Assembly: GCF_024521635.1 (NCBI RefSeq)
Contig: NW_026250404.1
Span: forward strand, 1-64,000
Direction: 5' to 3'
From: Tricharina praecox
Taxonomy: Eukaryota
DNA: 64,000 nucleotides
Of this stretch, positions 2,144 to 41,854 are shown piece by piece. The stretch's first letter is position 1, and each line of letters starts with the position of its first letter. Below the pieces are notes generated by a model that was not told the DNA's origin, did not search any database, and worked only from the letters and a program-made list of their open reading frames with translations. Made by a program: the position numbers and the translations under genes.

Positions 2144-2182
2144 GGTAGTTCGCTAGGTGGAGAGATAGGGGACGCAACAAAG

Positions 2183-3622: not shown

Positions 3623-4181
3623 TGTCACGGCTCGCGATGGAATGACGAAGGGAGGGTCGGCACAAGGATCGGGAGAGTTGGGGGGCAGTGCAGAGGCAGT
3701 GCACCGGCAGTGCAAGGATGAGTCGCAGAGGATTTCGGGCTGTGTGCAGGGAGCAGGGATAGCGCAGCAATGAGTCGCAGGAGATTGGGGCTGTGTGCAG
3801 GAAACAGGGGTAGTGCGGCTGCGCAGGGTATGAGTCACGGAAGTGGGGTACTGGCAAGGTGGATTTCTCGGGGTCTGGCACACGCCCACGGTCATTGTCA
3901 GGTTGCGGGAAGAAGTGGAGGATTTTCTATATAAACGGGCCGTTGCCCCTCTGTATTTAGTTCTTCACGCAACAACTTGTTAATTCAACCACTGTTACCT
4001 CTGTCCTTGCCTCGGCTGCCGTCTGCGCCGTAGTCCTTGTCCCTGCCTCTGTTCTCAGTTGCCGTCTGCACTGAGCCCTGCCTCACCTTGTCCCCTGAAC
4101 CCGTCTTGCCTCTACCGAACCCAGAACCCGATCCCCAGCCCGACTTCGCTACCTGGAGCCTTGCCCGACCGTGCCGTTACA
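3623..4181 (+). repeat. 5' LTR of A2
   Basis: TG...CA ends with imperfect terminal inverted repeat TGTCACGGC/GCCGTTACA; direct repeat of 9256-9814. Confidence 0.99.
3928..3935 (+). promoter_or_regulatory. TATA box in LTR U3
   Basis: TATATAAA, conserved in all family A LTR copies, about 30 nt upstream of the predicted self-primer and transcript start. Confidence 0.75.
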
Positions 4182-4183
4182 CT

Positions 4184-4192
4184 TTGTTGCGT
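4184..4192 (+). promoter_or_regulatory. Self-priming-type primer binding site of family A
   Basis: TTGTTGCGT, 2 nt after the LTR, is the exact reverse complement of ACGCAACAA at 3967-3975 in the LTR. Confidence 0.8.
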
Positions 4193-4220
4193 CCCCTATC
4201 TCTCCACCTAGCGAACTACC

Positions 4221-5417
4221 ATGGCCACCAACACTCAGGTACCCGACGTCCCCCAGCAGGACGAAGTACCAGTGGCACCCCCCTTCTACCGAGAAATTCC
4301 CGCCGCCATCTACGAACAACTCGAAATCATCGTCAATCATGATGTACCCGCCGATGATGCAACCCTGATGGGGTTGTACAATGAATTCAGAATCCTCGCC
4401 CGCGCAATCACCCAGTCCCCAATAGCCGTACCGACCTGGCGATTCGACGACCTCGAAGAACAACTTGCCGACGCCCGCCGCATCGCCAACCGCCTCGCAA
4501 CCGTCGAAACCCAACCTCAAAGCCGCGCTGAGCGTGTCCCAGAGCCAGCCATGTTCGACGGAACACGCGAGAAACTGGAAGGGTTCGTTGCGCAACTTCG
4601 ACTCAAGCTGTACAGCGACCCAGCCCGTTTCCCAACTCCAGCACTCCGAATGGCCTATGCCTTCAACCGCTTGGAAGGCCGCGCCCAAGCCCAGATCCTG
4701 CCGTACATCGAGAATCACAACATCACCCTCACCGACGCTGATGCGATCATCACACTCCTGAACAACGCATTTGGTGACCCTGACCCAGCGGCCACCGCTC
4801 GAGCCAAGCTACACCACCTGAAACAAGGCAATAAGGAGTTCACCTCCTACTTTGCGGAATTCCAGATGCTTGTCTCCAAGCTCAATTGGGACGAGCATGC
4901 GAAACTTGACGCGCTGCGAGAGGGAGTATCCATCGAACTCCACCGGCAACTTGTGGGCCGTACTCAGGGCCTCAACTACGATGAGTTTGTGGCCCTCTGT
5001 CAACGCCTTGACTCCGAGCTGCGTGCCCTCCAACTTCGTGAGGGACGTCGCACCACCAACCCCCCTCGGCAGAGTAGCGCCCCACACCCAACGGCGCCGC
5101 TCAGGCACACCACCCACAACACCATGCCCGCGACGACCACTGCCACAGGAACGGCCCCCGGAGCCATGGACTTGAGTGCCAACAGCCGCAGGATCCCAGA
5201 CCAAGAGCGTGCTGCCCGGCTCCGCGAAGGCCGCTGCCTGTACTGTGGGGGAAGTGGCCACATGGCCAGGCACTGCCCCAACAAGAACCGAAATCCGTTC
5301 CGAGCAGCCGTTGCCCGGCTGGAGTCAGCCCAGCCCACCAACACCACCCCGACTCACACCTATCACAACTGCAACCAGGATTGCGGCGAGACCTCCCAGC
5401 AGTCGGGAAAAGCCTAG
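4221..5417 (+). CDS. gag: Gag (capsid plus CCHC zinc knuckle), 398 aa
   Basis: ATG 39 nt after the LTR; PEPAMFDG capsid-type motif, PGAMDLS motif, knuckle CLYCGGSGHMARHC. Confidence 0.96.
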   Translation: MATNTQVPDVPQQDEVPVAPPFYREIPAAIYEQLEIIVNHDVPADDATLMGLYNEFRILARAITQSPIAVPTWRFDDLEEQLADARRIANRLATVETQPQSRAERVPEPAMFDGTREKLEGFVAQLRLKLYSDPARFPTPALRMAYAFNRLEGRAQAQILPYIENHNITLTDADAIITLLNNAFGDPDPAATARAKLHHLKQGNKEFTSYFAEFQMLVSKLNWDEHAKLDALREGVSIELHRQLVGRTQGLNYDEFVALCQRLDSELRALQLREGRRTTNPPRQSSAPHPTAPLRHTTHNTMPATTTATGTAPGAMDLSANSRRIPDQERAARLREGRCLYCGGSGHMARHCPNKNRNPFRAAVARLESAQPTNTTPTHTYHNCNQDCGETSQQSGKA

Positions 5418-5450
5418 ACCAACAACCGCTTGATGGCACTGTTGTTGGTC
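5405..5450 (+). promoter_or_regulatory. -1 programmed ribosomal frameshift signal
   Basis: Slippery heptamer G GGA AAA (5405-5411) in the gag frame, 5-nt spacer, perfect 10-bp stem GACCAACAAC (5417-5426) / GTTGTTGGTC (5441-5450); pol lies in the -1 frame. Confidence 0.88.
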
Positions 5451-8400
5451 GTACCCAGGATAAGTCTTTGTCTCCTATGTCCCCTATTTTTCGTTTGTCT
5501 AGTCTTTCAGTGTCAGGAATGGTTGTGGAAGAATCATCAATGGAAGGAAAACATCTTGTTGTATTGTGTAACCTTTCGTTTGGTGACAAAACTATTGCCA
5601 CGCATGCGCTGATCGACTGTGGGGCAACCGGAATTGCATTTGTAGACAAAGACTTCGCCCGCCATCACCACCTACCCCTCGTACCCCTGAAATCCCCGCG
5701 AAGTCTCGAAGTCATCGATGGCCGTCCCATCGAGTCAGGCGACATCACACATGTTGCCACCACCACCCTGTCCATACAGGAACACCACGAGGAAATCCCT
5801 ATGTTTGTCACCAAACTAGGCCACTACCCCGTTGTACTCGGAATCCCCTGGATGGACCTCCACGATGTGGCCATCCGGTTCAGCTCCCGAACCCTCACCT
5901 TCGGCTCCCAATACTGCACAGCCAACTGCAATGCGGTGCCCACAGTTGCACATGGAATCACCACCGACCCACCTGACGTATCCACCTATGCTCTCGCGTC
6001 AAAAGCAGCTCAGCAAGAGCCAGCGGTAAGCGCGGGGGCCGGCGACATCGTGGCCCGCTACATTACGTCTCCCCCAAGGAAGAATCACCAAGAATGCACT
6101 AACCTTTCAAGGGAAAGCACAGTCAGAATCTCAGCCTTACAGATGGAGTCATTCCAAGAACTGGTCAACAAGGAAAGCCTCACGATTTTCAACACCACGC
6201 TTGCCGAGGTCAACGGCGCACTGGAAGGAAACAAGGACCCCACGGCACATATCCCTCACGAATACCACGAGTTCCTACCGCTATTCTCTGAAGCCCTTGC
6301 CCAGAACCTGCCCCCGCACCGACACTACGACCATAAGATTCCACTCAAGGAGGGATTTACGCCCCCATACGGACCCCTGTACTCACTTTCGAAAACGGAG
6401 CTTGTCGCACTGAAGGAATGGCTTGACGACAACCTCCGCAAAGGTTTCATCCGTGCCTCTTCCTCTCCAGCAGCATCGCCAATCCTGTTTGTCAAGAAAT
6501 CGGACGGCTCCCTACGCCTGTGTGTGGATTACAGGGGCCTGAACGAAGGAACAATCAAGAACAGGTACCCACTCCCACTCCTCCAAGAAACTCTGATGCG
6601 GCTATCCGGGGCAAAATACTTCACTACCCTGGATATCCGTGGTGCCTACAACCTTGTGCGGATGGCGGAAGGAGAAGAGTGGAAAACTGCCTTCCGGACA
6701 CGCTATGGGCTCTTCGAATCCCTCGTCATGCCCTTCGGCCTCACCAACGCCCCTGCCGACTTCCAAGCTCTGATCAATGATGTGCTACGCCCGTTCCTCG
6801 ACGACTTCTGTACCGCATTCATCGACGACGTCTTCATTTACAGCGGATCCTTAGATGAACACCGGAAACATGTCAGGAAAGTACTTCAGGCCTTATCAGC
6901 AGCCGGTCTGCATCTCAAACCCGAAAAATGTCATTTCCACCAGACGGAAGTCAAGTATTTGGGACTGATCATTACAACAAACGGGATCAAGATGGACCCA
7001 TCGAAAGTCTCCTGCATACTGGAATGGGAGGAGCCGAGTACCGTCACCGATGTGCAATGCTTTCTGGGATTTGCGAACTTCTACCGGCGATTCATCCAAG
7101 ACTATTCCAAGGTGGTATCCCCATTGACAGCATTGACCAAGAAGGAGGATGGAAAGTATGTTCCCTTCGTGTGGGGACCGGAACAGCAGAAAGCATTCGA
7201 CGAACTAAAAACAGCATTCACCTCGGCCCCGATCCTCCGGCACTTCGACTACGATCGGGAGATAGTAGTGGAAACTGACGCCTCCGACTACGTCTCTGCC
7301 GGAGTCCTATCTCAGTACGACGACGAGGGAATCCTGCACCCAGTGGCATTCTATTCCAAGAAACACTCCCCGGCAGAATGCAACTACGAGATCTATGACA
7401 AAGAACTCCTTGCAATCATCCGCGCCTTTGAGGAGTGGAGACCACACCTGGAGGGCGCTCCTCACCCCATCCAAGTCCTAAGCGACCACAAGAATCTGGA
7501 GTATTTCATGACAACGAAACTACTCAACCGACGACAAGCGCGATGGTCAGAGTTCCTTTCCCGTTTCCATTTCAAGATTGTCTACCGACCAGGCAAAGCG
7601 GGAGGAAAACCAGATGCACTGACCAGGAGGTCAGGAGACCTCCCTAAAGAAGGGGATGAAAGACTGCTTGCCAACCAGCAGGCAGTCCTGAAACCGGATA
7701 ACCTACCGGAAGAGCTCCGGTTGGCAGCAACCAACACACCCGAACAAGACCGTCCCCTCCTCACGTCACTGATAACAGAAGGCTACGACATAGACCCCGT
7801 CCCAAATCGAATCCTCGAGCTACTCCGAAATGGTACACGCCACTCGAAGGAGATCTCCTTGGCCGAATGCCGTGAAGTCAACGGGCGACTGATCTACCGA
7901 GACTGCCTCTATGTTCCAGAGTACGACCGACTCCGACTACGACTGATCCAGGACCACCACGACCCACCGACCATGGGGCACCCAGGGCGCGCAAAAACCC
8001 TGGAACTACTTGCTCGAAGGTACTACTGGCCACAGATGCGAAAGGACGTTGACCAGTTTGTCCGAAACTGCCACACCTGCCGACGAACCAAGGCCACCCG
8101 GCACGCACCCTATGGTGTCCTGCGCCCCCTCCCAGTACCCGAGAAGCCATGGCAACACATCTCAGTCGACTTTGTCACTGGCTTACCGGCCTCAAAGGGG
8201 TTTGACGCCATCTGTGTTTTTGTTGACCGACTGACCAAGCAACGCCATCTCCTACCATGTACCACGACCATCACCTCGGAAGGACTGGCCGAGCTGTTCT
8301 GCGACCGGATCTTCAGGTACCACGGGTTGCCAGAAACCATCGTCTCGGATAGGGGTCCCCAGTTTGCCTCGAGATTCTGGAAACACCTATGCTCATGCCT

Positions 8401-9406
8401 CAAGATCGAGCCACGCCTGTCAACTGCCTTCCACCCCCAGACCGACGGCCAAACCGAACGGATGAACGCCGTCATGGAACAGCACCTCTGTGCGTACGTC
8501 AGCTACCTCCAGGATGACTGGGTCGACTACCTCTTCTTGGCCGAATTCGCCGGCAACAACCAGGTCTCCGACACGACTACCCTGTCCCCATTCTTCGCTA
8601 ACCTAGGATACCGCCCACGGTGTGACTTTGAGCTGGATATCCGTGTCGACACCAAGGAGGAACATCAAGCTCAGAGTGCAGCGGAACGGTTGCATCAAAT
8701 CCACGACGTCGCCCGCAGCCAAATGCGGTATGCCCAGGCACGGCAACAGGACGACTCCGACCGACACCGAACCCCTGCGCCAGCCTTCCAACCAGGCGAC
8801 ATGGTATGGGTGGATGGTCGGAACTGGCGCACCGAGAGACCCAGTCGCAAGCTGGAAAACAAACACCATGGTCCCTACCGTGTGATTCGGATAATCGGAA
8901 CCCACGCCTACGAATTGGACATCCCGGACACCGTTCAGAATCACCGAACATTTCCTGTATCCCTCCTTCATGCCTCCGCTGACGATCCCTTCCCTGGACA
9001 AATTCCACCGCCACCACTTCCGGTAATCGTGGACGACCAAGAAGAATGGGAGGTTGAAGAGGTCCTCGACAGCCGGAACCTCAGGGGCAAACTCCAGTAC
9101 CTGGTGAAATGGAGAGGCTACGCGGCACCAACATGGGAACCAGAGGAGAACCTTACCGAGGTACAAGCTGTGGACGACTTCCATCGACGATACCCCATGC
9201 AGCCTGGACCAGTCGAACTTGCTCTCGTGGGAACTCGAGCCTTAGGAGGGACTACTGTCACGGCTCGCGATGGAATGACGAAGGGAGGGTCGGCACAAGG
9301 ATCGGGAGAGTTGGGGGGCAGTGCAGAGGCAGTGCACCGGCAGTGCAAGGATGAGTCGCAGAGGATTTCGGGCTGTGTGCAGGGAGCAGGGATAGCGCAG
9401 CAATGA
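5405..9406 (+). CDS. pol: Pol polyprotein: aspartic protease, RT, RNase H, integrase, chromodomain (probably made as a Gag-Pol fusion)
   Basis: Uninterrupted ORF with [55 protein letters not shown], and WEVEEVLDSR..YLVKWRGY..TWEPEENL. Confidence 0.98.
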   Translation, partial: GKSLDQQPLDGTVVGRTQDKSLSPMSPIFRLSSLSVSGMVVEESSMEGKHLVVLCNLSFGDKTIATHALIDCGATGIAFVDKDFARHHHLPLVPLKSPRSLEVIDGRPIESGDITHVATTTLSIQEHHEEIPMFVTKLGHYPVVLGIPWMDLHDVAIRFSSRTLTFGSQYCTANCNAVPTVAHGITTDPPDVSTYALASKAAQQEPAVSAGAGDIVARYITSPPRKNHQECTNLSRESTVRISALQMESFQELVNKESLTIFNTTLAEVNGALEGNKDPTAHIPHEYHEFLPLFSEALAQNLPPHRHYDHKIPLKEGFTPPYGPLYSLSKTELVALKEWLDDNLRKGFIRASSSPAASPILFVKKSDGSLRLCVDYRGLNEGTIKNRYPLPLLQETLMRLSGAKYFTTLDIRGAYNLVRMAEGEEWKTAFRTRYGLFESLVMPFGLTNAPADFQALINDVLRPFLDDFCTAFIDDVFIYSGSLDEHRKHVRKVLQALSAAGLHLKPEKCHFHQTEVKYLGLIITTNGIKMDPSKVSCILEWEEPSTVTDVQCFLGFANFYRRFIQDYSKVVSPLTALTKKEDGKYVPFVWGPEQQKAFDELKTAFTSAPILRHFDYDREIVVETDASDYVSAGVLSQYDDEGILHPVAFYSKKHSPAECNYEIYDKELLAIIRAFEEWRPHLEGAPHPIQVLSDHKNLEYFMTTKLLNRRQARWSEFLSRFHFKIVYRPGKAGGKPDALTRRSGDLPKEGDERLLANQQAVLKPDNLPEELRLAATNTPEQDRPLLTSLITEGYDIDPVPNRILELLRNGTRHSKEISLAECREVNGRLIYRDCLYVPEYDRLRLRLIQDHHDPPTMGHPGRAKTLELLARRYYWPQMRKDVDQFVRNCHTCRRTKATRHAPYGVLRPLPVPEKPWQHISVDFVTGLPASKGFDAICVFVDRLTKQRHLLPCTTTITSEGLAELFCDRIFRYHGLPETIVSDRGPQFASRFWKHLCSCLKIEPRLSTAFHPQTDGQTERMNAVMEQHLCAYVSYLQDDWVDYLFLAEFAGNNQVSDTTTLSPFFANLGYRPRCDFELDIRVDTKEEHQAQSAAERLHQIHDVARSQMRYAQARQQDDSDRHRTPAPAFQPGDMVWVDGRNWRTERPSRKLENKHHGPYRVIRIIGTHAYELDIPDTVQNHRTFPVSLLHASADDPFPGQIPPPPLPVIVDDQEEWEVEEVLDSRNLRGKLQYLVKWRGYAAPTWEPEENLTEVQAVDDFHRRYPMQPGPVELALVGTRALGGTTVTARDGMTKGGSAQGSGELGGSAEAVHRQCKDESQRISGCVQGAGIAQQ

Positions 9407-9814
9407 GTCGCAGGAGATTGGGGCTGTGTGCAGGAAACAGGGGTAGTGCGGCTGCGCAGGGTATGAGTCACGGAAGTGGGGTACTGGCAAGGTGGATTTC
9501 TCGGGGTCTGGCACACGCCCACGGTCATTGTCAGGTTGCGGGAAGAAGTGGAGGATTTTCTATATAAACGGGCCGTTGCCCCTCTGTATTTAGTTCTTCA
9601 CGCAACAACTTGTTAATTCAACCACTGTTACCTCTGTCCTTGCCTCGGCTGCCGTCTGCGCCGTAGTCCTTGTCCCTGCCTCTGTTCTCAGTTGCCGTCT
9701 GCACTGAGCCCTGCCTCACCTTGTTCCCCGAACCCGTCTCGCCTCTACCGAACCCAGAACCCGTTCCCCAGCCCGACTTCGCTACCTGGAGCCTTGCCCG
9801 ACCGTGCCGTTACA
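9256..9814 (+). repeat. 3' LTR of A2
   Basis: Direct repeat of 3623-4181, preceded by the PPT. Confidence 0.99.
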
Positions 9815-11045: not shown

Positions 11046-11155
11046 TGTGATAAAGTACACTGGGAAAGTACTATACCATTCGTCCAAAAGGTATTTAATG
11101 GCGGAAGGCCATCATCCCAGTAGCTACTTAGGGCAAGAATTTCTGAACCGTGACA
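11046..11155 (-). repeat. Isolated terminal repeat of the TRIM-like family (110 bp), no TSD
   Basis: Clear homologue of 17321-17431, 28729-28840 and 29026-29137; TG...CA ends; flanks GGATA and CCCTT do not match. Confidence 0.88.
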
Positions 11156-11351: not shown

Positions 11352-12041
11352 TGTGACACCCCGATAGGTATCGGAGGTCACGACGGTCGCAAGAGATGTG
11401 ATTAGATAGTTCAGGTGATTAGAATAGAGTTGCGAGCCGAGAGGATAGTTAGAAGCGATCGAGGACAAGATAGGAAGGAGGGAGCAAACGGATTCCAGAG
11501 TCTAGACAGTGATCGGAGATGCGGGAGATCGGGATAACAGTCCAGAGGACTTTGCGATCTCCGTTCATACAGCCCCGCAGTAGGAACTCCGATCCAGGGA
11601 AAAACTGTTATGACGAGAGAATCGAACATCAACCGATGGGGGCAGACAACTTCGAGCGAAGAACTCTGCTGGCCCATGAGGGAGATAATTGCTCGGAAAC
11701 TCCGATCTATCTTGGGCGCGTGGTGTTTACCACCTGCCTAACCGGGAAGACTATCCGAAGAGAGCTGACGACGACTCAAGGCTAGGCCGCGGAACTCCGA
11801 TGCAAAGGAAGCAACGGAGCTACGTTAGGCCGCACTCTAGAGAAATCACGTGCTGAGGATCGGAACGACTATAAGGCGAACCGAGCGGGCAACCGAACCA
11901 AACTACAATCATCGCACCGAACAAACTGTCGAAGAAACACCCTTAAGATCATTCCGTTGTGGATTATCGAAATCCCTGACTTTTGTTCTACACTTGATAC
12001 TACCATAGACTCCGACGATGCAAACTCGTTCCAGTCTCACA
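11352..12041 (+). repeat. Family B 5' LTR (690 bp)
   Basis: Homologous to 18355-19043, 14851-15465 and 26534-26993; TG...CA ends. Confidence 0.92.
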
Positions 12042-15925: not shown

Positions 15926-18354
15926 TGTTAAGATTCCTTGCTAAAGCGTCTGTAAATGTTGGCGAACCCAAGAAAGGCTTAGACTCCCTTCAATGAACGT
16001 AGTGGTTCCCAGCTGGGACGGATTTCGTCTTGCCCTTCGCCGTCTCAATTCCAACTTGGGATATGGCATATCCTAGGAATTTCACACGGTTTGTTGACGA
16101 CAAGCAAATGTCCACAGAGATTGCCGGCTTGTGCTTCTCTAGCTGCTGTAATACCTCGGTGACTATGCGGTCGTGATCCCGTTGCATGTCAGCATAGATG
16201 AGAAGGTCATCAATGTATGCAACGAGGCCAAGGTGCAGCATATGGCGGAATATGTGGTTGATCATAGCCTGCAAGGTTGCTGGTGCGTTTGTCAACCCAA
16301 AGGGCATGACCAGCGATAAGAAGAGATCGCAACGACATCAGAACACAGTCTTCCATTCATCGCCTTCCTTGATGCAGATCATATGGTGCCTGTTCTTCAA
16401 GTCAATGTTTGTGAAGAACTTGGCTCCTCGCACACAGTCTTGCAACTCGGCCATCATGGGGACTGGGTAGCGGTTGGCGAACGTGGTCTTATTGATCCCC
16501 CAATAGTGCTCACACAGACTGAGCCCTCTCCCATGTGTCTTTAGTACACCCATGATGGGTGCGCCTGCAGAGGACTTCGAACGGCGGATCTTGCCGGTTC
16601 TGAGCATTTCCTTGAGCCACTCCGTGAGTGCCTGATGTACTATCTCAGAAAGACCGTACATGGGGCCCCATGGTTGAACTCCTGCTTCTTTCAGATCGAA
16701 TGCGTGATCACACGGCTTGTGATCACGCAACTTATCCGTAGCTTCCTGTTCCCTGAGGCCGGCAAATTGTCTGAACTTCTGGGGTACCAAGGCCAGTGGG
16801 TCTTCTGAGGTTGCATCTGTTGAGACACAGCCAATAATGGGAGCTTCGGAGTTGTGCACCACAGAGATGTCCAGTTCAATTGGAAAGCTCGTTGCTTAGT
16901 ACCGGGTGCAGTGTTCCTTGCACCTTGTGCTGTCAAAGCGCATGCTCCTGCCTTCGCTTGTCCAGAACCTGGACGCTTGGTGTTTTGGCATCCATTAACA
17001 GGGAAGGTAGATATCACAATCGTCCAGTGGAGCAATCTCAAAAGTTTCGGTGGAGGAATGCGTTCGGTGCTGGAGACTCATTGGCATTGCGTACTATTTG
17101 CCAGCGCCTTTGACAATGGTTCCATGGAGGTTATTGATCTCAATTGGGTTAGGACGCTGCATGAGGGGCAGTCTCAACTTCTTTGCAAGACGTCCATTGA
17201 TGATTGGAATGGAGCATCCTGTATCCAGGAGCACAGAAATCCGGTCGTGTTTACCCTCGGGCCTCAGAAGCAACATGTCTAAGATGGGCCGTGGTCCAAT
17301 GGTGGGGGTAGGGGGCTCGCTGTAATAAAGGACACTGGGAAAGTACTATACCACTTGACCAAAAGGTATTTTGATGGCTGAAGGCCATCATCCCAGTAGC
17401 TACTCAAGGCCAGGATTTCTGAACTGTGACACTCGCACCCGCTGCGCCCGGCGCGATTGGCCTTGTAGAAATAGGTTGGTGCGCCCGTCTTTGTGTTTCC
17501 CTGGTACCACTAGCTGGTACCTGGGGCGGCGATCTCTTCATACTGGGACATATACTGGTGGCTGCCCAACCTGCGGTATGTTGGGGCCCACTAAAAATCC
17601 TCCGGCTGACTCGAACTCTCTTCCCATAACTCAGAAGACTCCCTCATGTGGATGTCGCCCACTCTGAAAAGTCCCGGATTCTGTGAGAACCTCATGGTGA
17701 GGATATCCACCGGCATCGCTTCGTCCACCACGTGTTGGAGCGTCTCTGCAGTTGCATTTGCCAGTAGGCTCAGGGCTTGGAATGTATTAAGGTATGACTT
17801 GATGTTTTTCTTATACATCAAGCCCAACATGTTGTTGAGAGCATCTGCACCTTCCCTCAAGTCTCGAGGTTCTTCTTGGATATCATCCTGGTAGGCTTGC
17901 CAATTGTCCAGTCCGCGTAGGATACCTCATGGTACTTAATGCCAGACATGGGCTTCGTGGGTCAACAGGGTTCCCACCCAGGCAATACGTTGGACATCGT
18001 CGATGTTCGGATATGAGTCTAGCTATTTTGTCACAGTATCCCACCACGGTCACGAAGGTGTGGTTGGTTTACCATCACAGTCGTTAAGGTGACGCTTAGA
18101 TACAGCTTGTTAACCCCTCGGTTTGCCGACATGAGGTTTTCAGCCATGAAGGGGATAAAGCATTGTGCTTGGTCCTCGTAATCAGTATCCCTGTGGGGAG
18201 CGGAGTGGCCTCCGCGGCGAGCAGACGAGGCTCTTGTAGGAGGTTCTTCATTGTCATAGAATTCGTGATTCAAGTGGTGACCTCCGAGGTTAGCAGCTGG
18301 ATTATTCAGAGGCGGAGAAGTGGGAATCATTCGCGAACCACCAACATCCCTTAC
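15926..18354 (-). pseudogene. Family B internal region (partial gag, protease, RT), decayed
   Basis: [21 protein letters not shown], gag end SQPEDF*; contains the uninterrupted HQALTEWLK site. Confidence 0.9.
17321..17431 (-). mobile_element. Solo terminal repeat of the TRIM-like family (111 bp) with perfect 5-bp TSD
   Basis: TGTAATAAAG...CTGTGACA flanked by CTCGC at 17316-17320 and 17432-17436. Confidence 0.92.
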
Positions 18355-19140
18355 TGTGAGACTGAAACGAGTTCAGGTCTTCGGAGTCCATGGTATTATT
18401 GAGTATAGAATAAAAGTGAGGGATTTCGATGATTGACAACAGAATAATCTTGAAGGTGTTTCTTCGATGGTTGTTCGGTGCGACAATCTGTGTTCGGTTC
18501 GGTTGCCCGCTAAATTCGACACCTATAGCCGTCCCGATGCTCGGCACATGATTCATCTAGAGTGCGGCCTGATGCGGCTCTGTTGCTTCCTTTGCATCAG
18601 AGTTCACTGCGGCCTAGCCTTGAGTTGTCAGCTCTCTTCGGATAGTCTTGTCAACTAGGCAGGTGGTGAACACCACGCGCCCGAGATAGATCCGAGTTCC
18701 GGAGTAATTTTTTTAAAATGCAATGGCAAAGCTCTTCGCTTGAAGTTTTTGGTCCCCATAAATCGATGTTTGATTCTCTCGTCATAACAGTTTTTCTTTG
18801 ATCGGAGTTCCTACTGCGGGGCCGTATGATCGGTGATCTCAAAGCCCTCTGGGCTGTTACCATGATCACCTGCATCTCCGATCACTGTCTAGACTGTGGA
18901 ATCCGTTTGCTCTTCTCCTTCCCAACTTGTCCTCCCTCGCTTCTAACTATGCCTTCAGCTCGCAACTTGATTCTGATTACCCGGACTATTTGATCACATG
19001 TCTTACGACCGTCGTGATTCCTGATACCTACCGGGCTGTCACACCATCTCCCCTCCCACGAGGCTTCGGCCCGAAGCGCCCAAGTCTACGCCTTTATCCT
19101 AACCTGATAACTGTGGATGAAGTCCTCCATCCCCTTCATC
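18355..19140 (-). mobile_element. Family B 3' LTR (18355-19043) with PPT and element 3' tail
   Basis: 689-bp homologue of 11352-12041, preceded on the minus strand by the purine tract GGGAGGGGAGA (19047-19057). Confidence 0.85.
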
Positions 19141-19184
19141 CTACCACCTGCCCAAGTTCGAGAAAACCAGACGGGAAAAAATGG

Positions 19185-20342
19185 GGGTACCGTTGATGGA
19201 AGCCGTCCACCGCTTGTACCTCGGTAAGGTTCTCTTTTGGTTCCCATGTTGGTGCCGCGTAGCCTCTCCGTTTCACCAGGTACTGGAGTTTGCCCCTGAG
19301 GTGCCGGCTGTCGAGAGCCTTTTCAACCTCCCATTCTTCTTGGTCGTCCACAATTGACGGAAGTGGTGGCAGTGGAATTTGTCCAGGGAAGGGATCGGTG
19401 CTTCTGAACGGTGTCTGGGATGAGCAATTCGTAGGCGTGAGTTCCGATTGTCCGAATCACGCGGTCGGGACCATGGTGTTTGTTTTCCAGCTTGCGACTG
19501 TCGGTCAGAGTCCTCCTGTTTCCTGCCTGGGCATCCCGCATTTGACTGCGGGCAAGGTCGTGGATTTGATGCAACCGTTCCGCTGCAGTATAAGCTTGAT
19601 GTTCCTCCTTGGTGTGGACACGGATATCCAGCTCAATGTCACACCGCGGGTGGTATCCTAGGTTAGCGAAGAATGGGGACAGGGTAGCCGTGTCGGAGAC
19701 CTGGTTGTCACCAGCGAATTCGGCCAAGAACAGGTGGTCGACCCAGTCATCCTGGAGGTAGCTGACGTACGCGCGGAGGTGCTGTTACATGATGGCGTTC
19801 ATCCGTTCGGTTTGGCCATCAGTCTGGCGGTGGAAGGCAGTGGACAGGCACGGCTCGATCTTGAGGCATGAACATCGTTGTTTCCAGAATCTGGAGGCAC
19901 ACTGGAGACCCCTATCCGGGACGATGGTTTCTGGCAACCCGTGGTACCTGAAGATCCGGTCGCAGAAGAGCTCGGCCAGTCCTTCCGAGGTGATGGTCGT
20001 GGTACATGGTAGGAGATGGCGTTGCTTGGTCAGTCGGTCAACAAAAACACAGACCGCGTCAAACCCATTTGTGGCCGGTAGGCCAGTGACAGAAATCGAC
20101 TGAGATGTGTTGCCATGGCTTCTCGGGTACTGGGAGGGGGCGCAGGGCACCATAGGGTGCGTGCCGGGTGGCCTTGGTTCGCCGGCAGGTGTGGCAGTTT
20201 CAGACAAACTGGTCAACGTCCTGTCGGATCTGTTGCCAGTTGTACCTCCGAGCCAGTAGTTCCAGCGTTTTCGCGCGCCCTGGGTGCCCCATGGTCGGTG
20301 GGCCGTGGTGGTCCTGAATCAGTCATAGTTGGAGTCGGTCGT
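19185..20342 (-). pseudogene. Family A integrase-chromodomain fragment, decayed
   Basis: VDRLTKQRH, QTDGQTERMN, EWEVEKALDSR; indels and stops relative to A2. Confidence 0.92.
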
Positions 20343-26533: not shown

Positions 26534-27532
26534 AGGAACTACGATCAAGGGAGAAACTGTTATGATGAGAGCATCAAACATCAACCTATGGGGGCAAAGA
26601 ACTTCCAGCGAAGAACTCTGCCGGTGCATCAAGAAGATACATGCTCGGCAACTCCGATCTATCTTGGCGGGTGGTGTTTACCACCAGCCAAATCGAAAAG
26701 ACTATCCGAAGAGAGCTGACGCTGGCTCCAGGCTAGGTCGCGGGAACTGCGATGCAAAGGCAGCAACGGAGCCGCATCATGCCACACTCTAGAGGAATCA
26801 CGTGCAGAGGCTCGGTACGTCTATGAGTGTCAAATCGAGCGGGCAACTGAACCGAACACAGTCACCACACCGAACAACCATCGAAGAAACACCCTTAAGA
26901 TTATTCCGTTGTGAATCATTGAAATCCCTGACTTTTATTCTTTACTCGATATTAGCATAGACTCCGACGACCCGAACACGTTCCAGTCTCACACCTTCGG
27001 CTTGCAACTCTATTCTAATCACCCGGACCATCTAATCACATCTCTTGCGACCGTCGTGACCTCTGATACCTATCGGGGTGTTTCAGATTGCATGATCACA
27101 AGGCTTGTGATCACTCAACTTTTCCCCAGCTTCCTGTCCCATGAGTCCGGCAAATTGTCTGAATATCTGGGGTAACAAGGCCAGTGGGTCTTCTAAGGTT
27201 GCGTCTGATGAGACATAGCCAATAATGGGAGTTTCGGTGTTGTGAACGACAGAGATGTGAAGTTCAATTTCAAAGCTCGTTGCTTGGTGCCAGGTGCAGT
27301 GTTCCTAGCACCTTGTGCTGTCAAAGCGAATGTTCCTGCCTTCATTGGTCCAGATGCTGGACGGTTGATGTTTTGCCATCCACCAATGAAGGAGGTAAGC
27401 ATTACAATTGTCTAGTGGAGGAATCTCGAAAGTTTCGGTGGAGTAATGCTTTCGGTGCTGGAGATTCATTGGCATTGAATAGTATTCGCCAGCGCCTTTG
27501 ACAATAGTTCCATAGAAGTCCTTGATCTCGAT
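26534..27532. mobile_element. Family B debris: 3' part of an LTR (+, 26534-26993), 5' piece of an LTR (-, 26994-27085), protease-region fragment (-, 27086-27532)
   Basis: Direct sequence similarity to 11582-12041, 11352-11445 and 3100-3545. Confidence 0.85.
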
Positions 27533-28050: not shown

Positions 28051-28607
28051 TGTCACGGCCCGCCACGAAATGACGAAGGGAGGGTCAGCGCAAGGATCAG
28101 GAGAGTTGGGAGGCAGTGCATAGGCAGTGCACCGGCAATGTAAGGATGAGTCGCAGAGGATTATGGGCTGTATGCAGGGAGCAGGGATAGCGCAGTAATG
28201 AGCCGCAGGGATTGGGGCTGTGTGGAGGAAGCAGGGGTAGTGCGGCTGCGCAGGGTATGAGTCACGGAAGCGGGTACTGGCAAGGTGGATTTCTCAGGGT
28301 CTGGCACACGCCCACGGTCATTGTCAGGTTGGGGGAAGATGTGGAGGATTTTCTATATAAACGGGCCGTTGCCCCTCTGTATTTAGTTTTTCACACAACA
28401 ACTTGTGAATCCAACAGATGTTACCTCTGGCCTTACCTGGGCTGCCATCTGCGCCGTAGCACTTGTCTCTGCCTCTGTTCTCAGTTGCCGTCTGCACTGA
28501 GCCCTGCCTTGCCTTGTCCTGTGAACCCGTCTTGCCTCTGCCGAACCCAGCACCCGATCCCCCGCCCGACTTCGCTACCTGGAGCCTTGCTCGACCGTGC
28601 TGTTACA
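28051..28607 (+). mobile_element. Family A solo LTR with perfect TSD
   Basis: TGTCACGG...TGTTACA flanked by ACGGG at 28046-28050 and 28608-28612. Confidence 0.96.
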
Positions 28608-28728
28608 ACGGGTACACTATATAGTCACTCGACTATTGTCACGGATATATCAATACCAGCACAACTTGCACACCGAACACTGCGGACGATATCACCCAAG
28701 ATTATTCTGGTGTGAATTATTGTAATCC

Positions 28729-29137
28729 TGTCACGGTTCGGAAATCCTCGCCCTGAGTAGCTACTGGAATGATGGTCATCAGTCATCAAAAATACCTCTT
28801 GGTCCAGTGGCACGGTCCTTTCTTACTGTAGTTTATTACTGTTTCATGGCTGCCAAGTTTATGAGTTCAATTCTCACTGTGAGCAGTTACTTTCCTCTTT
28901 GCAGAGTTGTTCAGGAACCACATGGCTTACAGTGAGTGATGCATGATGATTTTTACATCAAATATCACTCATCTGGGGTTAAGTAGTTGAAGGCTTCCTG
29001 GAGTAAGCCTGTAAAGACGGGATACCGTCATGGTTGAGAAATCTTTGCCTTACCTAGCTACTGTGATGATGGCCGAAGGCCATCAAAAATACCTTTTGGT
29101 CGAGTGGTATACTACTTTCCCAGTGTACTTTATTACA
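28729..29137 (+). mobile_element. TRIM-like miniature LTR retroelement (409 bp)
   Basis: Two diverged ~112-bp direct repeats (28729-28840 and 29026-29137), 185-bp non-coding core, purine tract AAAGACGGGA before the right repeat, perfect TSD AATCC (28724-28728 and 29138-29142). Confidence 0.85.
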
Positions 29138-29207
29138 AATCCATGACTTTTATTCTAGATTTGATTCTATCAAGACTTCGACGTCCCGGAACCGTTTCAG
29201 TCTCACT

Positions 29208-29468
29208 CCTATATAAACAGACCTTTGCCCCGCTGTACTTAGCTCTTCACCCAACAACCTGTTAATTCAACAACTGTTACCTCTGCCCTTGCCTCAGCTG
29301 CCGTCTCCGCCGTGGTCTTTGTCTCCGTCTCTGTTTTTCAGTTGCAGTCTGCACTGAGCCTTGTTCCGCCTTGCCGTTTGACCCGCCTGGGTCTTGCCGA
29401 ACCCAGTTTCCAGTCCACCCGTCCACCCGTCTTCACTCCCTTGAGCCCTGCCTGACCATGCCGTTACA
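29208..29468 (+). repeat. Old family A LTR 3' half; last LTR-derived sequence in the window
   Basis: CCTATATAAAC...GCCGTTACA, diverged from 3926-4181. Confidence 0.85.
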
Positions 29469-32400
29469 CATACCTCTTGCAGCGCTGGACCAGACACTCC
29501 TTGATTCGCCCAGTCTGTGGTACTAAATGTCACTACAACCACACATCTCACTGGCATGATTGCTACACGTTTTTTCTTCAGTCAGAGCAGGTTATTGGGC
29601 CAGTTTCTTCCATCATCTCCGTTTGGGATCTTGAGACGGTGACCTTCTACGGTCCGTTATCCATCATGTCAAATCACTCCTGTAGCAAGTGACATCCATG
29701 CACGTCTCCCGATCAAGCTCGCTGCCGTGGATCACACAATAAGACAATCGATTCTAGTAGTACAGTTTGGCGACGCAAGTCCAAGACGATTTCTTCGATA
29801 GTTTGACTCATTGACTTGCGCAGAATGTGGCAATTTGAGGGCATGGAAGGAGACTACACACAGCACAGGGGAGGCGGCACTGGAGCATCGCCCAACTATT
29901 CGCAGACGAGCGCTCGGTAAATCGGTACTATGCTACAATTCCCGACTACAATGATGGACGGGGGGGGGGCAGAAATTTTTCCCATAGACGAGGAGAGCGG
30001 TGCCCGCCCCCGGGACCGAACATGGGTGTCCGGCGGGAGTGGGTCACTGCATATGTGGGATATGCGACTGAAGACCAATTGTGATACCTATGCTACCAAT
30101 ATAAATGCGATCCGGCAAAACTGAATGCATAATGCGACATCCCAGGTGGCAGGTACCGCCGTATAGGTGTCACATGCGCACACTTTAGCACTCGCTGGTA
30201 TTATCATGTGATGGCAGAATAGGTTGACCAGCGCTGAGAGGTCCACGACAGAAAATTGGTTCTCTCTCTCTCTCGCTTCGCAATCCAGAGACGTGCCTGG
30301 AGGAGCCAAACTCTGCCTGGGGGCTCCAAGCGATCGCAGTCAATCAATCAGTCACGGTATCCGAGGCCGGGGCCTAGACACAACGGCCGCACTGCGGCCA
30401 ATCGAGCAGGAAGATGCTGCTACATTCCTACCAGCCCGGACAAATAGGTAGGCAAACCGCAAGCGCTCAGATAGGAGAGAACTTCCGGTGCATGTGTGTA
30501 TCGCTTGGATGAAGAGATGAAGAGATAAGGCCTAACTGGATGCGGTCCCGTGATGGCCCGTATCAGAAGGAGCCTGGGTATGTAGGTTGATATCGACCGC
30601 GAAGGGCCAATGTACATACAAGTCACATCGGTCAAATGAGAATCGCCAACGTTCAATCGATCCCTGGCTCCCCAGGCCGTCCCGGCGCGACGTCCATCGC
30701 TGCTGCTGCTGCTGCTGCGCCTCACGACACGCGGCCCGACCGAGTGCTGCTAAGTGACAGGCGAAACGCTCCAATCAAAAGACAGCAATCCGCCGCCCAC
30801 TCGGCAACGGCACCGGGAACGGCACCGGCTACGGCCGCGGCTATAGCAACGGCGTTGCTCACGGCCTGCCTTTTACCGACGACGATGACACCACACAGCC
30901 ACTCGCTGCTCCATGGCGATGCATGCAAAGTGTTTCCCCACCCCTCCCCCCCCCCCCCCCCCGCTCAACCCGGTTCGTTGGGGCTGGGATCGACAACATG
31001 AAACGTCAGACTGGGCTGTCACTTGTCACGCTACCAACCCGACCGAAGCGAGGCAGCCATGACAGCGGCTTCTGGAAAATCCCATCCCCCCACCAAATTG
31101 AACGTGGAACGTGGCAGAGAATTGCGCGCTATGGATCTATGTACGCCGCCAGAGGTGGATATATGTCCAGCACTTCTCATATGTTCCCACCGACCTACCT
31201 ACTTCAGCACCTACTCTACTTTATATACCTTCCTACATTCCCCTACGTATATCCGTGCGAGTATGTAGGCTGCGTGGTGCATAACACTCTACGGCCCCAC
31301 CAAACCAACCACCCACCATCCACCGTCACGGCGCATATGCCTACCTTTCCCGGCGGGGGCTTCGCCAATCCGACCACATCTGTCAAGCAACCAACGATAT
31401 AGTTGCACAGTGCACACGACGTCGGCCCAGAGTGACGATGAATATAGCCGTGGCTGGAAGCTGCTCTGGACTCTGGAGACTGGATTCTGGAAGCTGAACT
31501 GGAAGCCGGCTCTGCCAAAAAAGAAAAAGAAAAAGAAAAGATAAACCAGCAACAACTGCCATGCAGATTTACTCTATGATACATGCCCCGCCGGCCCGGT
31601 CGGCATCGTCCGGCCGGCCGATGATGTACCCAAGTACCTACAGCACAGTACAGCTACCAAATTACCTACATTCATGCATAGATACATACCTCATACGACG
31701 GAAGAATCCCCGGAATCCGTCGCCCGTGCTCCGCTCCTTGTAAGGCCCGTGTTCCGCCGATTCCCATTGCCCACGCCCTACGAGGTGTCGGTCATCTATG
31801 TAGAGTAACTCTGCGCCTCGGCGAGGGTTGTCCGGCTAAACGCACCCCATCCCGTTCGCCCGTTCGCCCCTTCCCATCCCTCCTTCCCCTTCCCCACGCT
31901 CGGGAGGGGGGGCTTCAGTCGAGGCATTCATTCATTCGCATTGACCACGACAACGACCTTTCGTAGCGTCCATACGGCGCGCCATACCATACCATACCAC
32001 AGTTATCGGCCTGGCTCACGTCGTGCTCACGTCGCACGGGGTGGATGGGTGGACAGGTGGTGGATGCGCTGGTGTGCTGGTTCGGTTCGGTTGGATGGTT
32101 GCGAAAGGAAATATCGCCAAGAGGTGTAACGCATGCACGTCACTTACCGATGTGCGTGCTAATATGCACCGCACATACGCGACGATTAACTGGGGCTGTG
32201 GGTGCGATTGCGATGGGAAGGAGGGGAACGAGGGTAGATTACGTACCGCGCCGTACCGGCTCAAAGGCGACCACCACCACCACCACCACCACCCACCGGG
32301 AAATCTCTGGCTGGCTTCTAGAACGTTGCGCGCATCGGTACTTGCTGGCATGGAAGTTGGAACAGAACAGCTGCATTGCCGCCGCCTCCGCCGCCGCCGC

Positions 32401-35202: not shown

Positions 35203-35316
35203 GTCCAGTGTCCAGTGTCCAGTGTCCAGGTGTCCAGGTGTCCAGGTGTCCAGGTGTCCAGGTGTCCAGGTGTCCAGGTGTCCAGGTGTCCAGGTGTCCA
35301 GGTGTCCAGGTGTCCA
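35203..35316. repeat. Tandem repeat: (AGTGTCC)n grading into about 11 copies of AGGTGTCC
   Basis: Read directly from the sequence. Confidence 0.95.
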
Positions 35317-35460
35317 TGTCAGTGCAACTCGCGCCACGGCCGCACATGCTGACATCCCAATCGCACGTATGAAGTATGTGTGTTATGTACCGTATGTATG
35401 TACCGTATGTATGTACCGTCGGTACATGCACAGACGCACAGGGCACTCTACTGTGTACGG

Positions 35461-37044: not shown

Positions 37045-38306
37045 CTATTGCGTCGAGCTAGTTCTTCGAGAACCCGGGGATCTCGAATCGGAGTTCGTGA
37101 TGGCGGGTATTCTACGCCGGCGAGCATTGATGAACCAGTTGCTAATCTACGATTCTGTCAGTACTTCATAAACAAAAACAACTCCTTTGAACTCACCTGA
37201 TGGATCGTCAATCCAGTCTGAGCCATCAACATCTGTTTCTCGTCTTCTGTAGGGTATGGGTGGTGGAGATGGTCGTTCAACCAACTTCGCAGCAGATCCG
37301 TCACATGCTTGGGCAGATTCCCCCGTCTCCTCTTTCCCGGTCTGCCCTGCTCAAAATGATCCATGCTCAATTCCCCCGGGTGTCCCTGCGAGGAAAATGG
37401 TGATCTGGCGTCCGGCGCACCGGGCTGACGAGCAGGGTACCCGGCGTGCGGTCTTGGCTGTTGTGCGTACGGCGCGGTGTGAGAGTAGTATGGCTGCGAA
37501 TATTGCGTGACGGGCGACGATGATTGGTACGGGCTCGGAGAGATGGCCGAGCTGGATGAGTATCTGTGGTAATCCGGTGTGGTTTGCTGACTCCTCATCG
37601 CCTCGTGCTCGTACTGTGGTGCATACGCGCTGTGGCCTGACTGGTGGTGCGAACTGTACAGAGGCAATGGAGCTGCGATTCCCGATGCCGGCCTGTCCGA
37701 GTGATCCATCTCAAACGACGAGCCTCTCGACGACGTCAACGATGATACCGGGGGCAGGTACGGACTCGGCCTCGAGTCGCCTGCGTGTGGCGATGAGACG
37801 ATCCGCCTCGAATCCAAATGTCCGGGGAACATGTAAGTCTGGGCATCGTAGGCTCCATCCATGTGATCGTGCGCTGATACTGTGGGGTTCCCGGTCAGAA
37901 AGAGGTCTGGGTAAAAGCTTCTCGGCGTCGGAACGTCCGATGATCCAAAGTAGGAAGGAAATGTGGCCATACTTCCGGCATCAGAGATGGTACTCGACGA
38001 AGTGGGGGAAGCCCTGTGAGGTGGCTGCCTGAAAGATGGAGATCCGCGCTCCGCCAGTTTCCGCGGCACACTCGAGGACCTCCGCTCGTGTGGATTGTGG
38101 GAATGGAATTCCGGTATTGCCTTGTCGTCGCCAACATCGAAGTAAGCATACGGGTCATTGAGAAGGTTCAGAGGTGTATAGGCTACCTGATGGAGAGGTG
38201 GCAGTGAGTTTGGGTGACCGGAAGAGGGTGTGGAAGACATGGTCATTGTCGGCTCGAAAGATTTTCGGCTCTCAATGTTCCAAGAAGATATTCCAGCCGT
38301 GTACAT
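37045..38306 (-). CDS. TALE-class homeodomain transcription factor (Homeobox_KN; Cup9/Tos8/TGIF-like); exons 38306-37197 and 37146-37045
   Basis: Removing a 50-nt intron (37196-37147; GTGAGT, branch TACTGAC, TAG) completes KRRRGNLPKHVTDLLRSWLNDHLHHPYPTEDEKQMLMAQTGLTIHQ|ISNWFINARRRR, which has the PYP loop and WFIN. The N-terminus is rich in S, P and Y. The start could instead be the ATG at 38246. Confidence 0.95.
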
Positions 38307-39552
38307 TTGGAACAACCTGCCAGCCGGTAGAATAGGTGTATGTATGTATTTGGATATGGCCCTAGAACCTGTGTCTAGGCTTCCAGAAGGTGGGAAATCT
38401 CGATGACTTTATGTACTGTGACGCCTCTACTGCGTTGTCTAAGTCTGGGGGTTAGCCCGATGCCACCAACACCAGCGCCAGCAGTACGACTAGCAACGGC
38501 ACCACCACACTACCACCACGTTCCTGATACACAGCATTTTTCCTTGTCAAGGATGGGAGAACAAAGGTGTGAAGTCATACGGGGCCCCTGAACAACGTGA
38601 CGGGGCGGGGGTATGGGGTTGTGGGCAGGAGGGTGGGGTGGGGGCGAGACGAGCAAAAGAAAGTCCAAAAGGACACACCATTCCAAAGCTCCGAAAGAAA
38701 GACAGTGGAAGTAGTAATCCTGGGAATCGGTACATTGGATTGCATGCGTAGATGATGGGGTAGAGGGTGGACACGCACAAGGGAACGAAACGCAAAGGGG
38801 GGGTGAAACACCGAGCAGGCATTGTCCGATTGGGGTTTGGGGAGGAATTGGGGGGGTGCAGCAGTTGGGTACGACCAGAAGCACTACCGACGAACACGAT
38901 GGATGGGGATGGGGGGTGGGGGGTGGGATCCGAGTAGTAACGGTGAAAGCCCCATAAGGCATGGTTCACGAAGCGGGGCGTAATCATGGTCCCGGGGGTG
39001 GGGTGGGGATGATGGGCATAAGAAGATCGACAAGAGGAGAAGGAGAAACGCGCGTTTGAGCGTGAGAGGCACATACCGACGAATATTATATAACCACTTT
39101 GAGAACAAAGCAATAAGACCCGAGAAATTTATTAAGCGGGATGCGGAGCCCGGGATGGGATCCTTTGATGTGGGAGGAGAGAAGAGTTTCGCTAAAACGA
39201 ACAAGCGTGTCGAGGTGGAGGCTGGGGGGTGGAGGGGTGGGGAGGAGCTTGTCGAAAGCTGGACGACCAACGGAGAAATCGATTTCGGCGGGACGGATAT
39301 CGGAGGTCGGTGGAGGGTGGGGGAGGTGGAGGGGTGAGGGGTGGGTGGGAGTGTGTAGTGTAGTGGTGTGAGCGCCGGGGGTGGGGTAGGATCTGGAGGG
39401 CAGGCGGGAAGGATCGCACTGGAGGTGGGGGAGTGATGGATGATATACGGGAGCAGCAGGAGAGCTGGACGGGATGCACGATTGCGAGCGAGCGACAGTG
39501 TGTGCGAGTGTGAGGGTGCAAGTGAGAGGTAGGAACCAGGCAGGTATGTACT

Positions 39553-40124: not shown

Positions 40125-41433
40125 GTCCCTACCGGCAATCACCTTCTCTCGCGGAAAAATAAATAAAAATGGTGGCTCCCACACGTCGAAGGCAGCAGGC
40201 GGATGCAGATTGGTGTATGTACCGCCACCAGACGGACGGAAGGTCACGGCCCACCCTACTCCACCACCACCTCCACCAACAACAACAACACGACAGGCGG
40301 ATCCAGACGACCGATCGACTAGTTGGTCAGTTAGTCCACGGCACCAGCCAAGCAGCGCAGAGACACGACCAAGCACGAACCGGCGCGAGACAGAACACGG
40401 GTACCCTATCCGAGCGGAGCAGGTATGATGGCGCGGGCAGCAGTGGCAGATGTCGTCGTTGTCGGAGTGCGATCGTAGTCGTGATCGTGCTTGTGACTGT
40501 GAGTTGCGTGTGAGCGTGAGCGGGAGCGGGAGTGTGGGCGTGGGGCGTGAGCTTGTGAGTCCGCTGTGAGCTCGAATGCAGGAGGGAGATGAGGGCGAAT
40601 CTCGAAGGGATGGCGGAATAATAGCCGTGATCGTTCGTTCGCTCGTTCTTCGTTCGTCGCCGGTAGGCTAATGACGGAAGCAGGACGACGAAGACGAAGA
40701 CGCCGACGCCGACGAGCTGTGGCTGTGGCTGTTCGTCCGCTCGCTGGGTCCCACCACTAGTTGCTCTAGTACCGTACCATATTCTCCTGCCATGTATGTG
40801 AGTGGACCGGAAGTCCGAGCGTCTACCTGCTCCATATCAGCAGTGTGTAGCCTTTTTTTCTTCTTTTTTTTCATTCTTTCTGTGGCGTCTGTATCACGAC
40901 GGGTGGGTAGCCGGCCACACGGTCTGACTGGATCGATGGGAAATGTCCGCTATCGGAGCAACACGATGCGGACAGACGTATGTCGTGCAGAGCTGCGAGC
41001 AGGCAGAGCGGAAGAAGAAAAGCTGGAGAAGAGTCACCTATTCCGGTCCGAACACGGTGGTACGGGAGAACGAGCTAGCCAGCGTACCTACGTGGAGAGT
41101 CGTGGACCCGCCCCCAGCTGCGAAGTGAGGAAGCGACTCGGTCGGTTTGGATGGTTATCGAGTGGGGAACGAAAGGAAGGAAAAAAGCGAAGCGGATGGG
41201 AAACCAAAAGGCGTTGGTGATGCTGTTCCGCTGCTGCTGTTGTTCCGCTGCTGCTGCTGATGCTGCTGCTGCCGACGATGTCTTGGATCGATTGCACGAT
41301 AGGTGTCAGTCAGCCGTTCTCGGTCAGTTAGTCCGTTAGTCAGTCAGTCGTTCTCGGTTAGGTAGTCCGTCGGTCACTCTCGGTTCGCCCGTCAGTCATT
41401 CTCGGTCCGCACTTCGGTCCGGCTTCTCCTTCA

Positions 41434-41547
41434 CCTTCCTCTCCTACTCCTTCCTCTCCTACTCCTTCCTCTCCTACTCCTTCCTCTCCTACTCCTTCCT
41501 CTCCTACTCCTTCCTCTCCTACTCCTTCCTCTCCTACTCCTTCCTCT
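41434..41547. repeat. Perfect 15-bp minisatellite CCTTCCTCTCCTACT, about 7.6 copies
   Basis: Read directly from the sequence. Confidence 0.97.
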
Positions 41548-41854
41548 TCTCCTCTTCTTGGCCGGTCCTATCCTTTCAATCCACGCATATATTTTACTCC
41601 CATCTGACACCGTCCCGGGTGCGTGTGCTCTGCATTGGCAGCACTGCCTCTTCCTCCATGTGGATGGGATGGTAGGTATGCGTATCCGCTGTCTGTCTCT
41701 CTCACTGCCTGCGCCTACCTTGACGTGGGAGCGCCGGATGACGATCTTAGCACTGATCTGACCCGAGTGGAACCTTCAAGGAATATTTAATCGTCCGTCC
41801 GTCCACCATCATCCGTCCGCACGTCTCTCTTGTCTCACGTCGGCGTGTAACTAC

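Follow-up and report, generated by a model that had tools for sequence, protein, structure and literature searches.

The 409-bp unit at 28729-29137 of the window (the whole stretch of Tricharina praecox DNA that was analysed, 64 kb in length) is probably an old and decayed copy of a multi-copy family of TRIM-type elements that are self-primed and find their most likely helper in a chromovirus of the family-A lineage. That the unit belongs to a TRIM-type family is in itself very likely. TRIMs are defined as elements of less than 1 kb with two short LTRs, only a PBS and a PPT, and no genes (PMC10886601, partial text). The 409-bp unit lies below this length, is without coding capacity and has a PBS after its 5' LTR and a PPT before its 3' LTR. 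Its interpretation as a TRIM-like element inserted by an integrase is based on the TG..CA repeats, the PBS and PPT, the 5-bp TSDs with their empty sites, and the further copies found in the window and in public sequencing runs, and these observations support the TRIM-like, non-coding element that was proposed in the initial annotation.

The unit had been described as two repeats of about 112 bp around a 185-bp core, flanked by a perfect AATCC TSD, and the coordinates of this anatomy are right (Table 1). The two repeats match each other with E = 5e-16 in a comparison within the window, and nhmmer, run over the 64 kb with a profile built from all four copies, detects the repeat four times and the core once, with no further matches. 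The consensus of the four copies runs from TGTCACGG to TTTATTACA, with the end of the mini-LTR also read as ..TTATTACA, and these tips give the repeats the TG..CA ends typical of LTRs. As TG..CA reads on both strands, the plus orientation was chosen from the purine tract, which precedes the 3' repeat on the plus strand only. No ORF of more than 75 aa overlaps the 409-bp unit, and the longest ORFs there extend into the repeats. The putative U3 of the mini-LTR is only 51 nt long and on direct reading contains no TATA box.

Table 1. Coordinates of the mini element, its relatives in the window and the LTR retroelements around it.
Feature	Position	Strand	Remarks
409-bp mini element	28729-29137	+	two 112-bp direct repeats, 185-bp core
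Left TSD AATCC	28724-28728	+	same letters as 29138-29142
Right TSD AATCC	29138-29142	+	same letters as 28724-28728
5' mini-LTR, 112 bp, TGTCACGG...TTATTAC(T)	28729-28840	+	17 changes from the four-copy consensus
3' mini-LTR, 112 bp, (C)GTCATGG...TTTATTACA	29026-29137	+	12 changes from the four-copy consensus
Internal core, 185 bp, non-coding	28841-29025	+	no second copy in the window
Putative self-primer / start of R, CAGTCATCAAA	28780-28790	+	inside left repeat; CAGCCATCAAA in the solo copy and the run consensus
Self-priming-type PBS TTTCATGGCTG	28842-28852	+	1 nt beyond left repeat
PPT AAAGACGGGA + TAC	29013-29025	+	adjoins 3' repeat; direct reading
Solo mini-LTR	17321-17431	-	nearest to consensus, 4 changes; CTCGC at 17316-17320 and 17432-17436
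Empty site of the solo insertion	2924-2928	+	paralogous degenerate gypsy fragment 2746-3625, single target copy
Fourth mini-LTR copy	11046-11155	-	6 changes from consensus; without TSD (GGATA vs CCCTT, + strand)
Uninterrupted target GAAATCCCTGACTTTT (16-mer)	11969-11984	+	in family-B LTR
Host LTR interrupted by the mini element	28637-29469	+	about 419 bp without insert; starts TGTCACGGATA, ends GCCGTTACA
Solo family-A LTR	28051-28607		5-bp duplication ACGGG; 29 bp upstream of host LTR
Family A copy A2, candidate helper lineage	3623-9814	+	LTRs 3623-4181 and 9256-9814; 4/559 positions differ
A2 gag frame	4212-5417	+	
A2 pol frame, open, 1442 aa	5078-9406	+	Pfam: RVT_1, RNase H, integrase, SH3_Tf2-1, Chromo
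Family A PBS TTGTTGCGT	4184-4192	+	two bases beyond LTR; complementary to ACGCAACAA at 3967-3975 inside LTR
Sequence before 3' LTR			mini AAAGACGGGA + TAC; family A GGAGGGAC + TAC; family B ..GGGGAGATGG
LTR start			mini TGTCACGGTTC; family A TGTCACGGCTC; family B TGTGACA..
LTR end			mini ..TTATTACA; family A ..GCCGTTACA; family B ..AAGGTTACA (..GATGG)

Once the element and one AATCC are taken out, the joined flanks give a continuous alignment over the junction with 26866-26996, 11915-12040 and 18452-18356. The 16-mer that spans the target is also present as an exact match at 26921-26936 and with one mismatch at 18412-18427 (-), and four matches were reached in none of 100 shuffles. The empty site that had been claimed in family-B LTRs is therefore real, as three paralogues keep the target uninterrupted. 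The solo mini-LTR, which interrupts a degenerate gypsy fragment, has an empty site of its own in an intact paralogue of that fragment, where the self-BLAST matches 2746-2928 and 2924-3625 share 5 bp that correspond to the lone target of the insertion. The fourth copy, which lacks a TSD, may be a recombinant solo. At least three transpositions had been proposed for the family, which agrees with at least three insertion places in the window and a mechanism that duplicates 5 bp, with the proviso that no duplication surrounds the copy at 11046-11155. Two solo insertions lying side by side were considered as an origin of the 409-bp unit and rejected. The left repeat is bordered by AATCC and GTTTC and the right one by GATAC and AATCC, so that neither repeat has a duplication of its own and the pair has one. 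A MITE, that is a derivative of a DNA transposon, was likewise rejected, as the repeats are direct and only their TGT/ACA tips are inverted.

Further copies of the element were sought in Logan contigs from four public soil-metagenome runs (X1 to X4) of two studies, aligned to 28629-29228 at 80% likeness. X1 is possibly the sample from which the window itself derives and X2 and X3 come from the same study, so that independent support amounts to one further study (X4) with two contigs. Contigs lose rare variants, their summed depths are not copy numbers, and the variants given below are a partial set. One X1 contig matches exactly over 878 bp with 0 differences at a depth of 9.8. In other contigs the core is found at about 80-90% likeness. 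One of these spans 28827-29005 of the core region (record 2), another runs from 28963 to 29052, that is from the core through the PPT into the 3' LTR (record 7), and in a contig from the second study the match extends over 28789-29009 and includes 33 differences (record 24, X4). Three contigs of 400-478 bp (records 4-6, depth 7.6-12.1) lead from an LTR end into the core, in one case with 29137 joined directly to 28841, and four X1 contigs continue past 28898 with a sequence that is recognisably the remaining core. The LTR 3' end also exits into flanks that are unlike one another, in 13 + 4 contigs of X1 and 9 + 1 contigs of X2 (agreement 0.42-0.5). Junctions between core and LTR are thus present in several contigs from two studies, and a second copy is at no point read end to end across both LTRs.

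These contigs bear on the possibility that a single deletion in a normal element left the unit behind as a remnant, with its other copies arising from segmental duplication. The window does hold just one copy with two LTRs, and the LTRs of that copy are highly diverged, both of which favour a remnant. This origin is nevertheless very improbable, because core sequences with LTR junctions recur at 80-90% likeness in several contigs, one of them in a run of the other study, because several core contigs are near the depth of the single-copy contig, because the flanks beyond the LTR differ among contigs, and because the unit has its own 5-bp duplication with a clean empty site. Uniqueness of the 409-bp form had been named in the initial annotation as grounds for giving up the TRIM reading, and the form is probably not unique, as other contigs likewise contain the core joined to repeat sequence. 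The summed X1 depth is 70-138 over the core and 1816-3490 over the 3' half of the LTR; depth is not copy number, and this difference is a rough indication of a large excess of LTR copies over cores. Most LTR copies would then not be attached to a core and may be solos or part of another element. Contig cover is low over the 5' halves of the two LTRs in the window, to which no meaning is attached, since divergence from the consensus is greatest in these halves. In the JGI metagenome contigs, an IUPAC pattern fitting all four LTR copies of the window and a 23-nt piece of the core without variation among the run contigs both gave 0 matches, which indicates that the family is absent from that collection in this form.

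The PBS of the mini element had been reported to match the family repeat at 10 of 11 positions. This holds for the CAGCCATCAAA of the solo copy, to which TTTCATGGCTG is complementary at 10/11, but not for the repeats of the element itself, where the complementarity is 9/11 with its own left repeat and 8/11 at best with the right one. Among 20000 random 16-nt segments of the window, 125 reach at least 10/11 against the solo copy. The mismatch is corrected in other copies: 28845 is changed from C to G in five X1 contigs and in the single X4 contig, which makes the complement to CAGCCATCAAA 11/11, and this is the sole change listed inside 28842-28852, with 28854, 28858 and 28860 just beyond it being variable. 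The loose-end consensus ...CCTTCAGCCATC, the stretch of the LTR that contains the primer, is present in all four runs. The last base of the left repeat is similarly repaired, as 28840 is changed from T to A in four other X1 contigs and the X4 contig, restoring an ..ACA end. The MFE fold of 28780-28856 pairs its 5' end with the PBS at an ordinary energy (z = -0.59). In family A, where the MFE and centroid folds of 3967-4196 pair TTGTTGCGT with ACGCAACAA, z is +0.83, and in both elements the pairing thus rests on complementarity and not on a stability signal. Covariation between primer and PBS was not seen among the contig copies, in which both are simply conserved. Each mini-LTR contains a hairpin made of GATGGCC, a loop of 3-4 nt and GCCATC (28771-28787, 29068-29084, 17373-17389 (-) and 11097-11113 (-)). 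The putative self-primer shares bases with the right arm, and the left arm is similar to the PBS, so that part of the complementarity reflects one repeated motif. The hairpin could compete with or regulate the fold-back pairing.

Self-priming of the Tf1 type is the likely mode of the mini element, judging from these complementarities. The proposal of self-priming has gained support, since the mismatch is corrected to 11/11 in other copies and the resident chromovirus has a fold-back arrangement as well. It is improbable that the family is of the TRIM type and primed by a tRNA. In that case TGGCTGCCAAG (28847-28857) would pair with a tRNA 3' end ...CTTGGCAGCCA, and the resemblance to the LTR would follow incidentally from the hairpin, with which the PBS indeed has an ATGGC motif in common; a TGG is found 6 nt beyond the LTR, and the frequency of 10/11 matches among random segments is not negligible. 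The matching tRNA would however need to begin with U, and tRNAs that begin with U are uncommon. The only change listed inside 28842-28852 restores the complement to the LTR, whereas 28854 varies (one contig makes up about half of the summed depth), as do 28858 and 28860, and the resident chromoviruses are fold-back primers. Precedent is on the side of the tRNA, as most described TRIMs are primed by a tRNA, at its 3' end or, in fungal Helenus, at its anticodon loop (PMC10886601, partial text).

Whichever primer the family uses, the copy at 28729-29137 is almost certainly dead, given its diverged LTRs and a primer-PBS match that falls short with both of its own repeats. Between the left and right repeats there are 30 differences over 112 positions (73% identity, K2P 0.34), and such a low identity marks the copy as old and decayed. 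Neither repeat is as far from the two other copies as the two are from each other, and mutations have hit the last base of the left repeat and the first base of the right one. RIP was considered as a cause of this divergence and rejected, as the differences comprise 18 transitions and 12 transversions, and indices of 0.96 and 1.17 give no clear RIP signature.

The mini element lies near the end of a nest of LTR retroelements that makes up the first 29.5 kb of the window. In the remainder, an ORF at 37158-38408 (-) encodes a Homeobox_KN domain (E = 5e-13) and has its best named relatives in Rhizina, Morchella and Pyronema at 45-50% identity, and fourteen other long ORFs between 30 and 64 kb have no Pfam match. 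Tandem repeats at 35206-35333 and 41403-41567 are built from an 8-bp unit (GTGTCCAG, ~15 copies) and a 15-bp CT-rich unit, and long poly-C runs are located near 30940, 33170 and 42430. Within the nest, the family A copy A2 looks young and intact; its gag overlaps pol in another reading frame, and its flanks CACGG and CATGG are alike at 4 of 5 positions. Among named organisms, Morchella (59-61%) and other ascomycetes have the proteins most similar to the A2 pol, and metagenome proteins reach up to 80%. Together with the relatives of the homeobox ORF, this points to a fungal host that is probably a Pezizomycetes species with no near relative sequenced. Family A is an element of the self-primed Tf1/sushi kind. 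The segment ACGCAACAA, to which its PBS is complementary, sits 39 nt beyond a TATATAAAC box (3928-3936), and the 9-nt fold-back PBS is the same in copy A3. At 18352-20342 (-), a pol 3' end with 83-93% DNA identity to family A is followed by a family-B-type LTR (start TGTGACA), and for this reason A and B seem to be closely related families whose LTRs differ. The LTR interrupted by the mini element is family-B-like around the insertion site and family-A-like over its 3' 260 bp (76-80% identity), and appears to be a mosaic of the two types.

The mini element resembles family A at those places that an RNase H and an integrase read. Its LTR start, TGTCACGGTTC, agrees with the TGTCACGGCTC of family A at 10/11 positions and both LTRs end in TTACA. 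Family A carries GGAGGGACTAC at the same place as the PPT junction of the mini element, and a change of 29018 from C to G in other contigs gives the mini PPT an unbroken purine run. The mimicry of family A that had been proposed stands as far as the TGTCACGG / TTACA tips and the TAC junction are concerned, but the tips are also present in the type of LTR that the element interrupts, so that they point to the lineage and not to copy A2, and family A is not singled out. As tips and PPT junction are the parts that are read by RNase H and integrase, a helper from the A lineage is a reasonable reading, and the shared tips, TAC junction, duplication length and mode of priming put the chance that the helper is a chromovirus of this lineage at about even. 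Another autonomous helper is a less likely but appreciable possibility, for instance an unseen element that carries these 111-bp LTRs and would have given rise to the mini form by internal deletion. Such an element could account for the X1 depth over the LTR 3' half, which far exceeds that over the core, as well as for a core that shows no similarity to family A in the self-comparison of the window; the tips shared with family A are, moreover, present in another LTR type. In the 64-kb window, however, there is no coding element with a mini-LTR, and the 10/11 match of the LTR start and the TAC junction are specific to family A as against family B. The contigs that leave the LTR 3' end have no common continuation except the core, which is a weak argument (agreement 0.42-0.5) because similar junctions collapse into few contigs.

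Among known systems, the mini element shares with TRIMs its short LTRs, gene-less interior, length below 1 kb, 5-bp duplications and frequent solo LTRs (PMC10886601, partial text), and SMART provides a comparison element within the TRIM-type group (PMC3281118, partial text). It differs from a typical TRIM in its ascomycete host, in a PBS that matches its own LTR and no recognised tRNA end, and in its likely helper, a chromovirus of the Tf1/sushi type. Fungal terminal-repeat retrotransposons are reportedly the subject of Santana et al. 2013. The statement in the initial annotation that few fungal TRIMs are known has to be tempered, as 113 Helenus families in rust fungi and a few in Agaricomycetes are in print (PMC10886601, partial text), together with one TRIM in a library of Zymoseptoria tritici (PMC10652580, partial text). 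Like the mini element, Helenus is a fungal, miniature, non-autonomous element with two LTRs, 5-bp duplications and many solo LTRs; unlike it, fungal Helenus belongs to Pucciniales and some Agaricomycetes (Basidiomycota) and uses tRNA primers, and Helenus and Cassandra/Ajax (TRIMp3) have a pol III promoter derived from a tRNA or 5S gene in the LTR (PMC10886601, partial text). A TRIM of the Helenus, Cassandra or Ajax type was rejected for the mini element, as a search of Rfam at E up to 10 with all four mini-LTR copies gave no tRNA, 5S or other credible match; ARAGORN finds 0 tRNA genes in the 64-kb window. The TAGCT..TGG and GGTCGAG motifs of the mini-LTR bear a weak resemblance to a pol III promoter by eye only.

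The priming arrangement is reminiscent of that in Tf1, Tf2, Tj1 and the Tf1/sushi group, in which the PBS adjoining the 5' LTR is the complement of a short stretch within the LTR, interpreted as the 5' terminus of the RNA. Tf1 primes with its first 11 nt, and the complement between PBS and LTR in the mini element is likewise 11 nt. The members of the Tf1/sushi group are autonomous elements of 5-6 kb that encode RT and RNase H, whereas the mini element encodes nothing and would have to offer its fold-back structure to enzymes provided in trans. Self-priming is established for Tf1 and has been proposed for Tj1, Maggy, Skippy, Cft-1, Boty, Afut1 and the Tcn1 clade (PMC4600332, PMC6934838, PMC6317226, each in partial text). 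For TRIMs, a paper on bivalve elements does no more than raise self-priming as something that might apply where a PBS is lacking (PMC6934838, partial text). Full-text searches of the literature gave no description of a self-primed TRIM, and Repbase or Dfam may already contain the family.

In the proposed cycle, the RNA of the mini element would have its 5' end at CAGCCATCAAA in the 5' LTR or upstream of it, and its 3' end within the 3' LTR. Its 11-nt 5' segment would fold back onto the 11-nt PBS one base beyond the LTR, the RNase H of the helper would presumably cut behind this segment, and the RT of the helper would extend it, so that no tRNA is needed, as in Tf1-type self-priming. The PPT with its TAC would prime the plus strand. 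The helper integrase would then recognise the TGTCACGG... and ...TTACA tips and insert the DNA with a 5-bp duplication, and recombination between LTRs would give rise to solo LTRs. The packaging of the RNA, like the identity of the helper, is a putative part of this cycle.

The family may, tentatively, be the first described self-primed TRIM, a gene-less and minimal fold-back substrate that is used in trans by the RT and RNase H of a chromovirus and whose LTRs have been amplified. If so, an R-U5 of about 60 nt and an 11-nt PBS would be the minimal cis-acting substrate of Tf1-type priming, and the element, in which primer, loop and PBS together take up less than 80 nt, would help to delimit the RNA features needed by the enzyme. 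It would also mean that non-autonomous parasites can hijack self-priming as they do tRNA priming. When repeats in fungal genomes or metagenome bins are annotated by routine methods, LTRs of 100 bp and elements of 400 bp are overlooked or mislabelled. TRIMs have mostly been a plant story, and an ascomycete TRIM with its own primer would widen the known parasitism of LTR retrotransposons.
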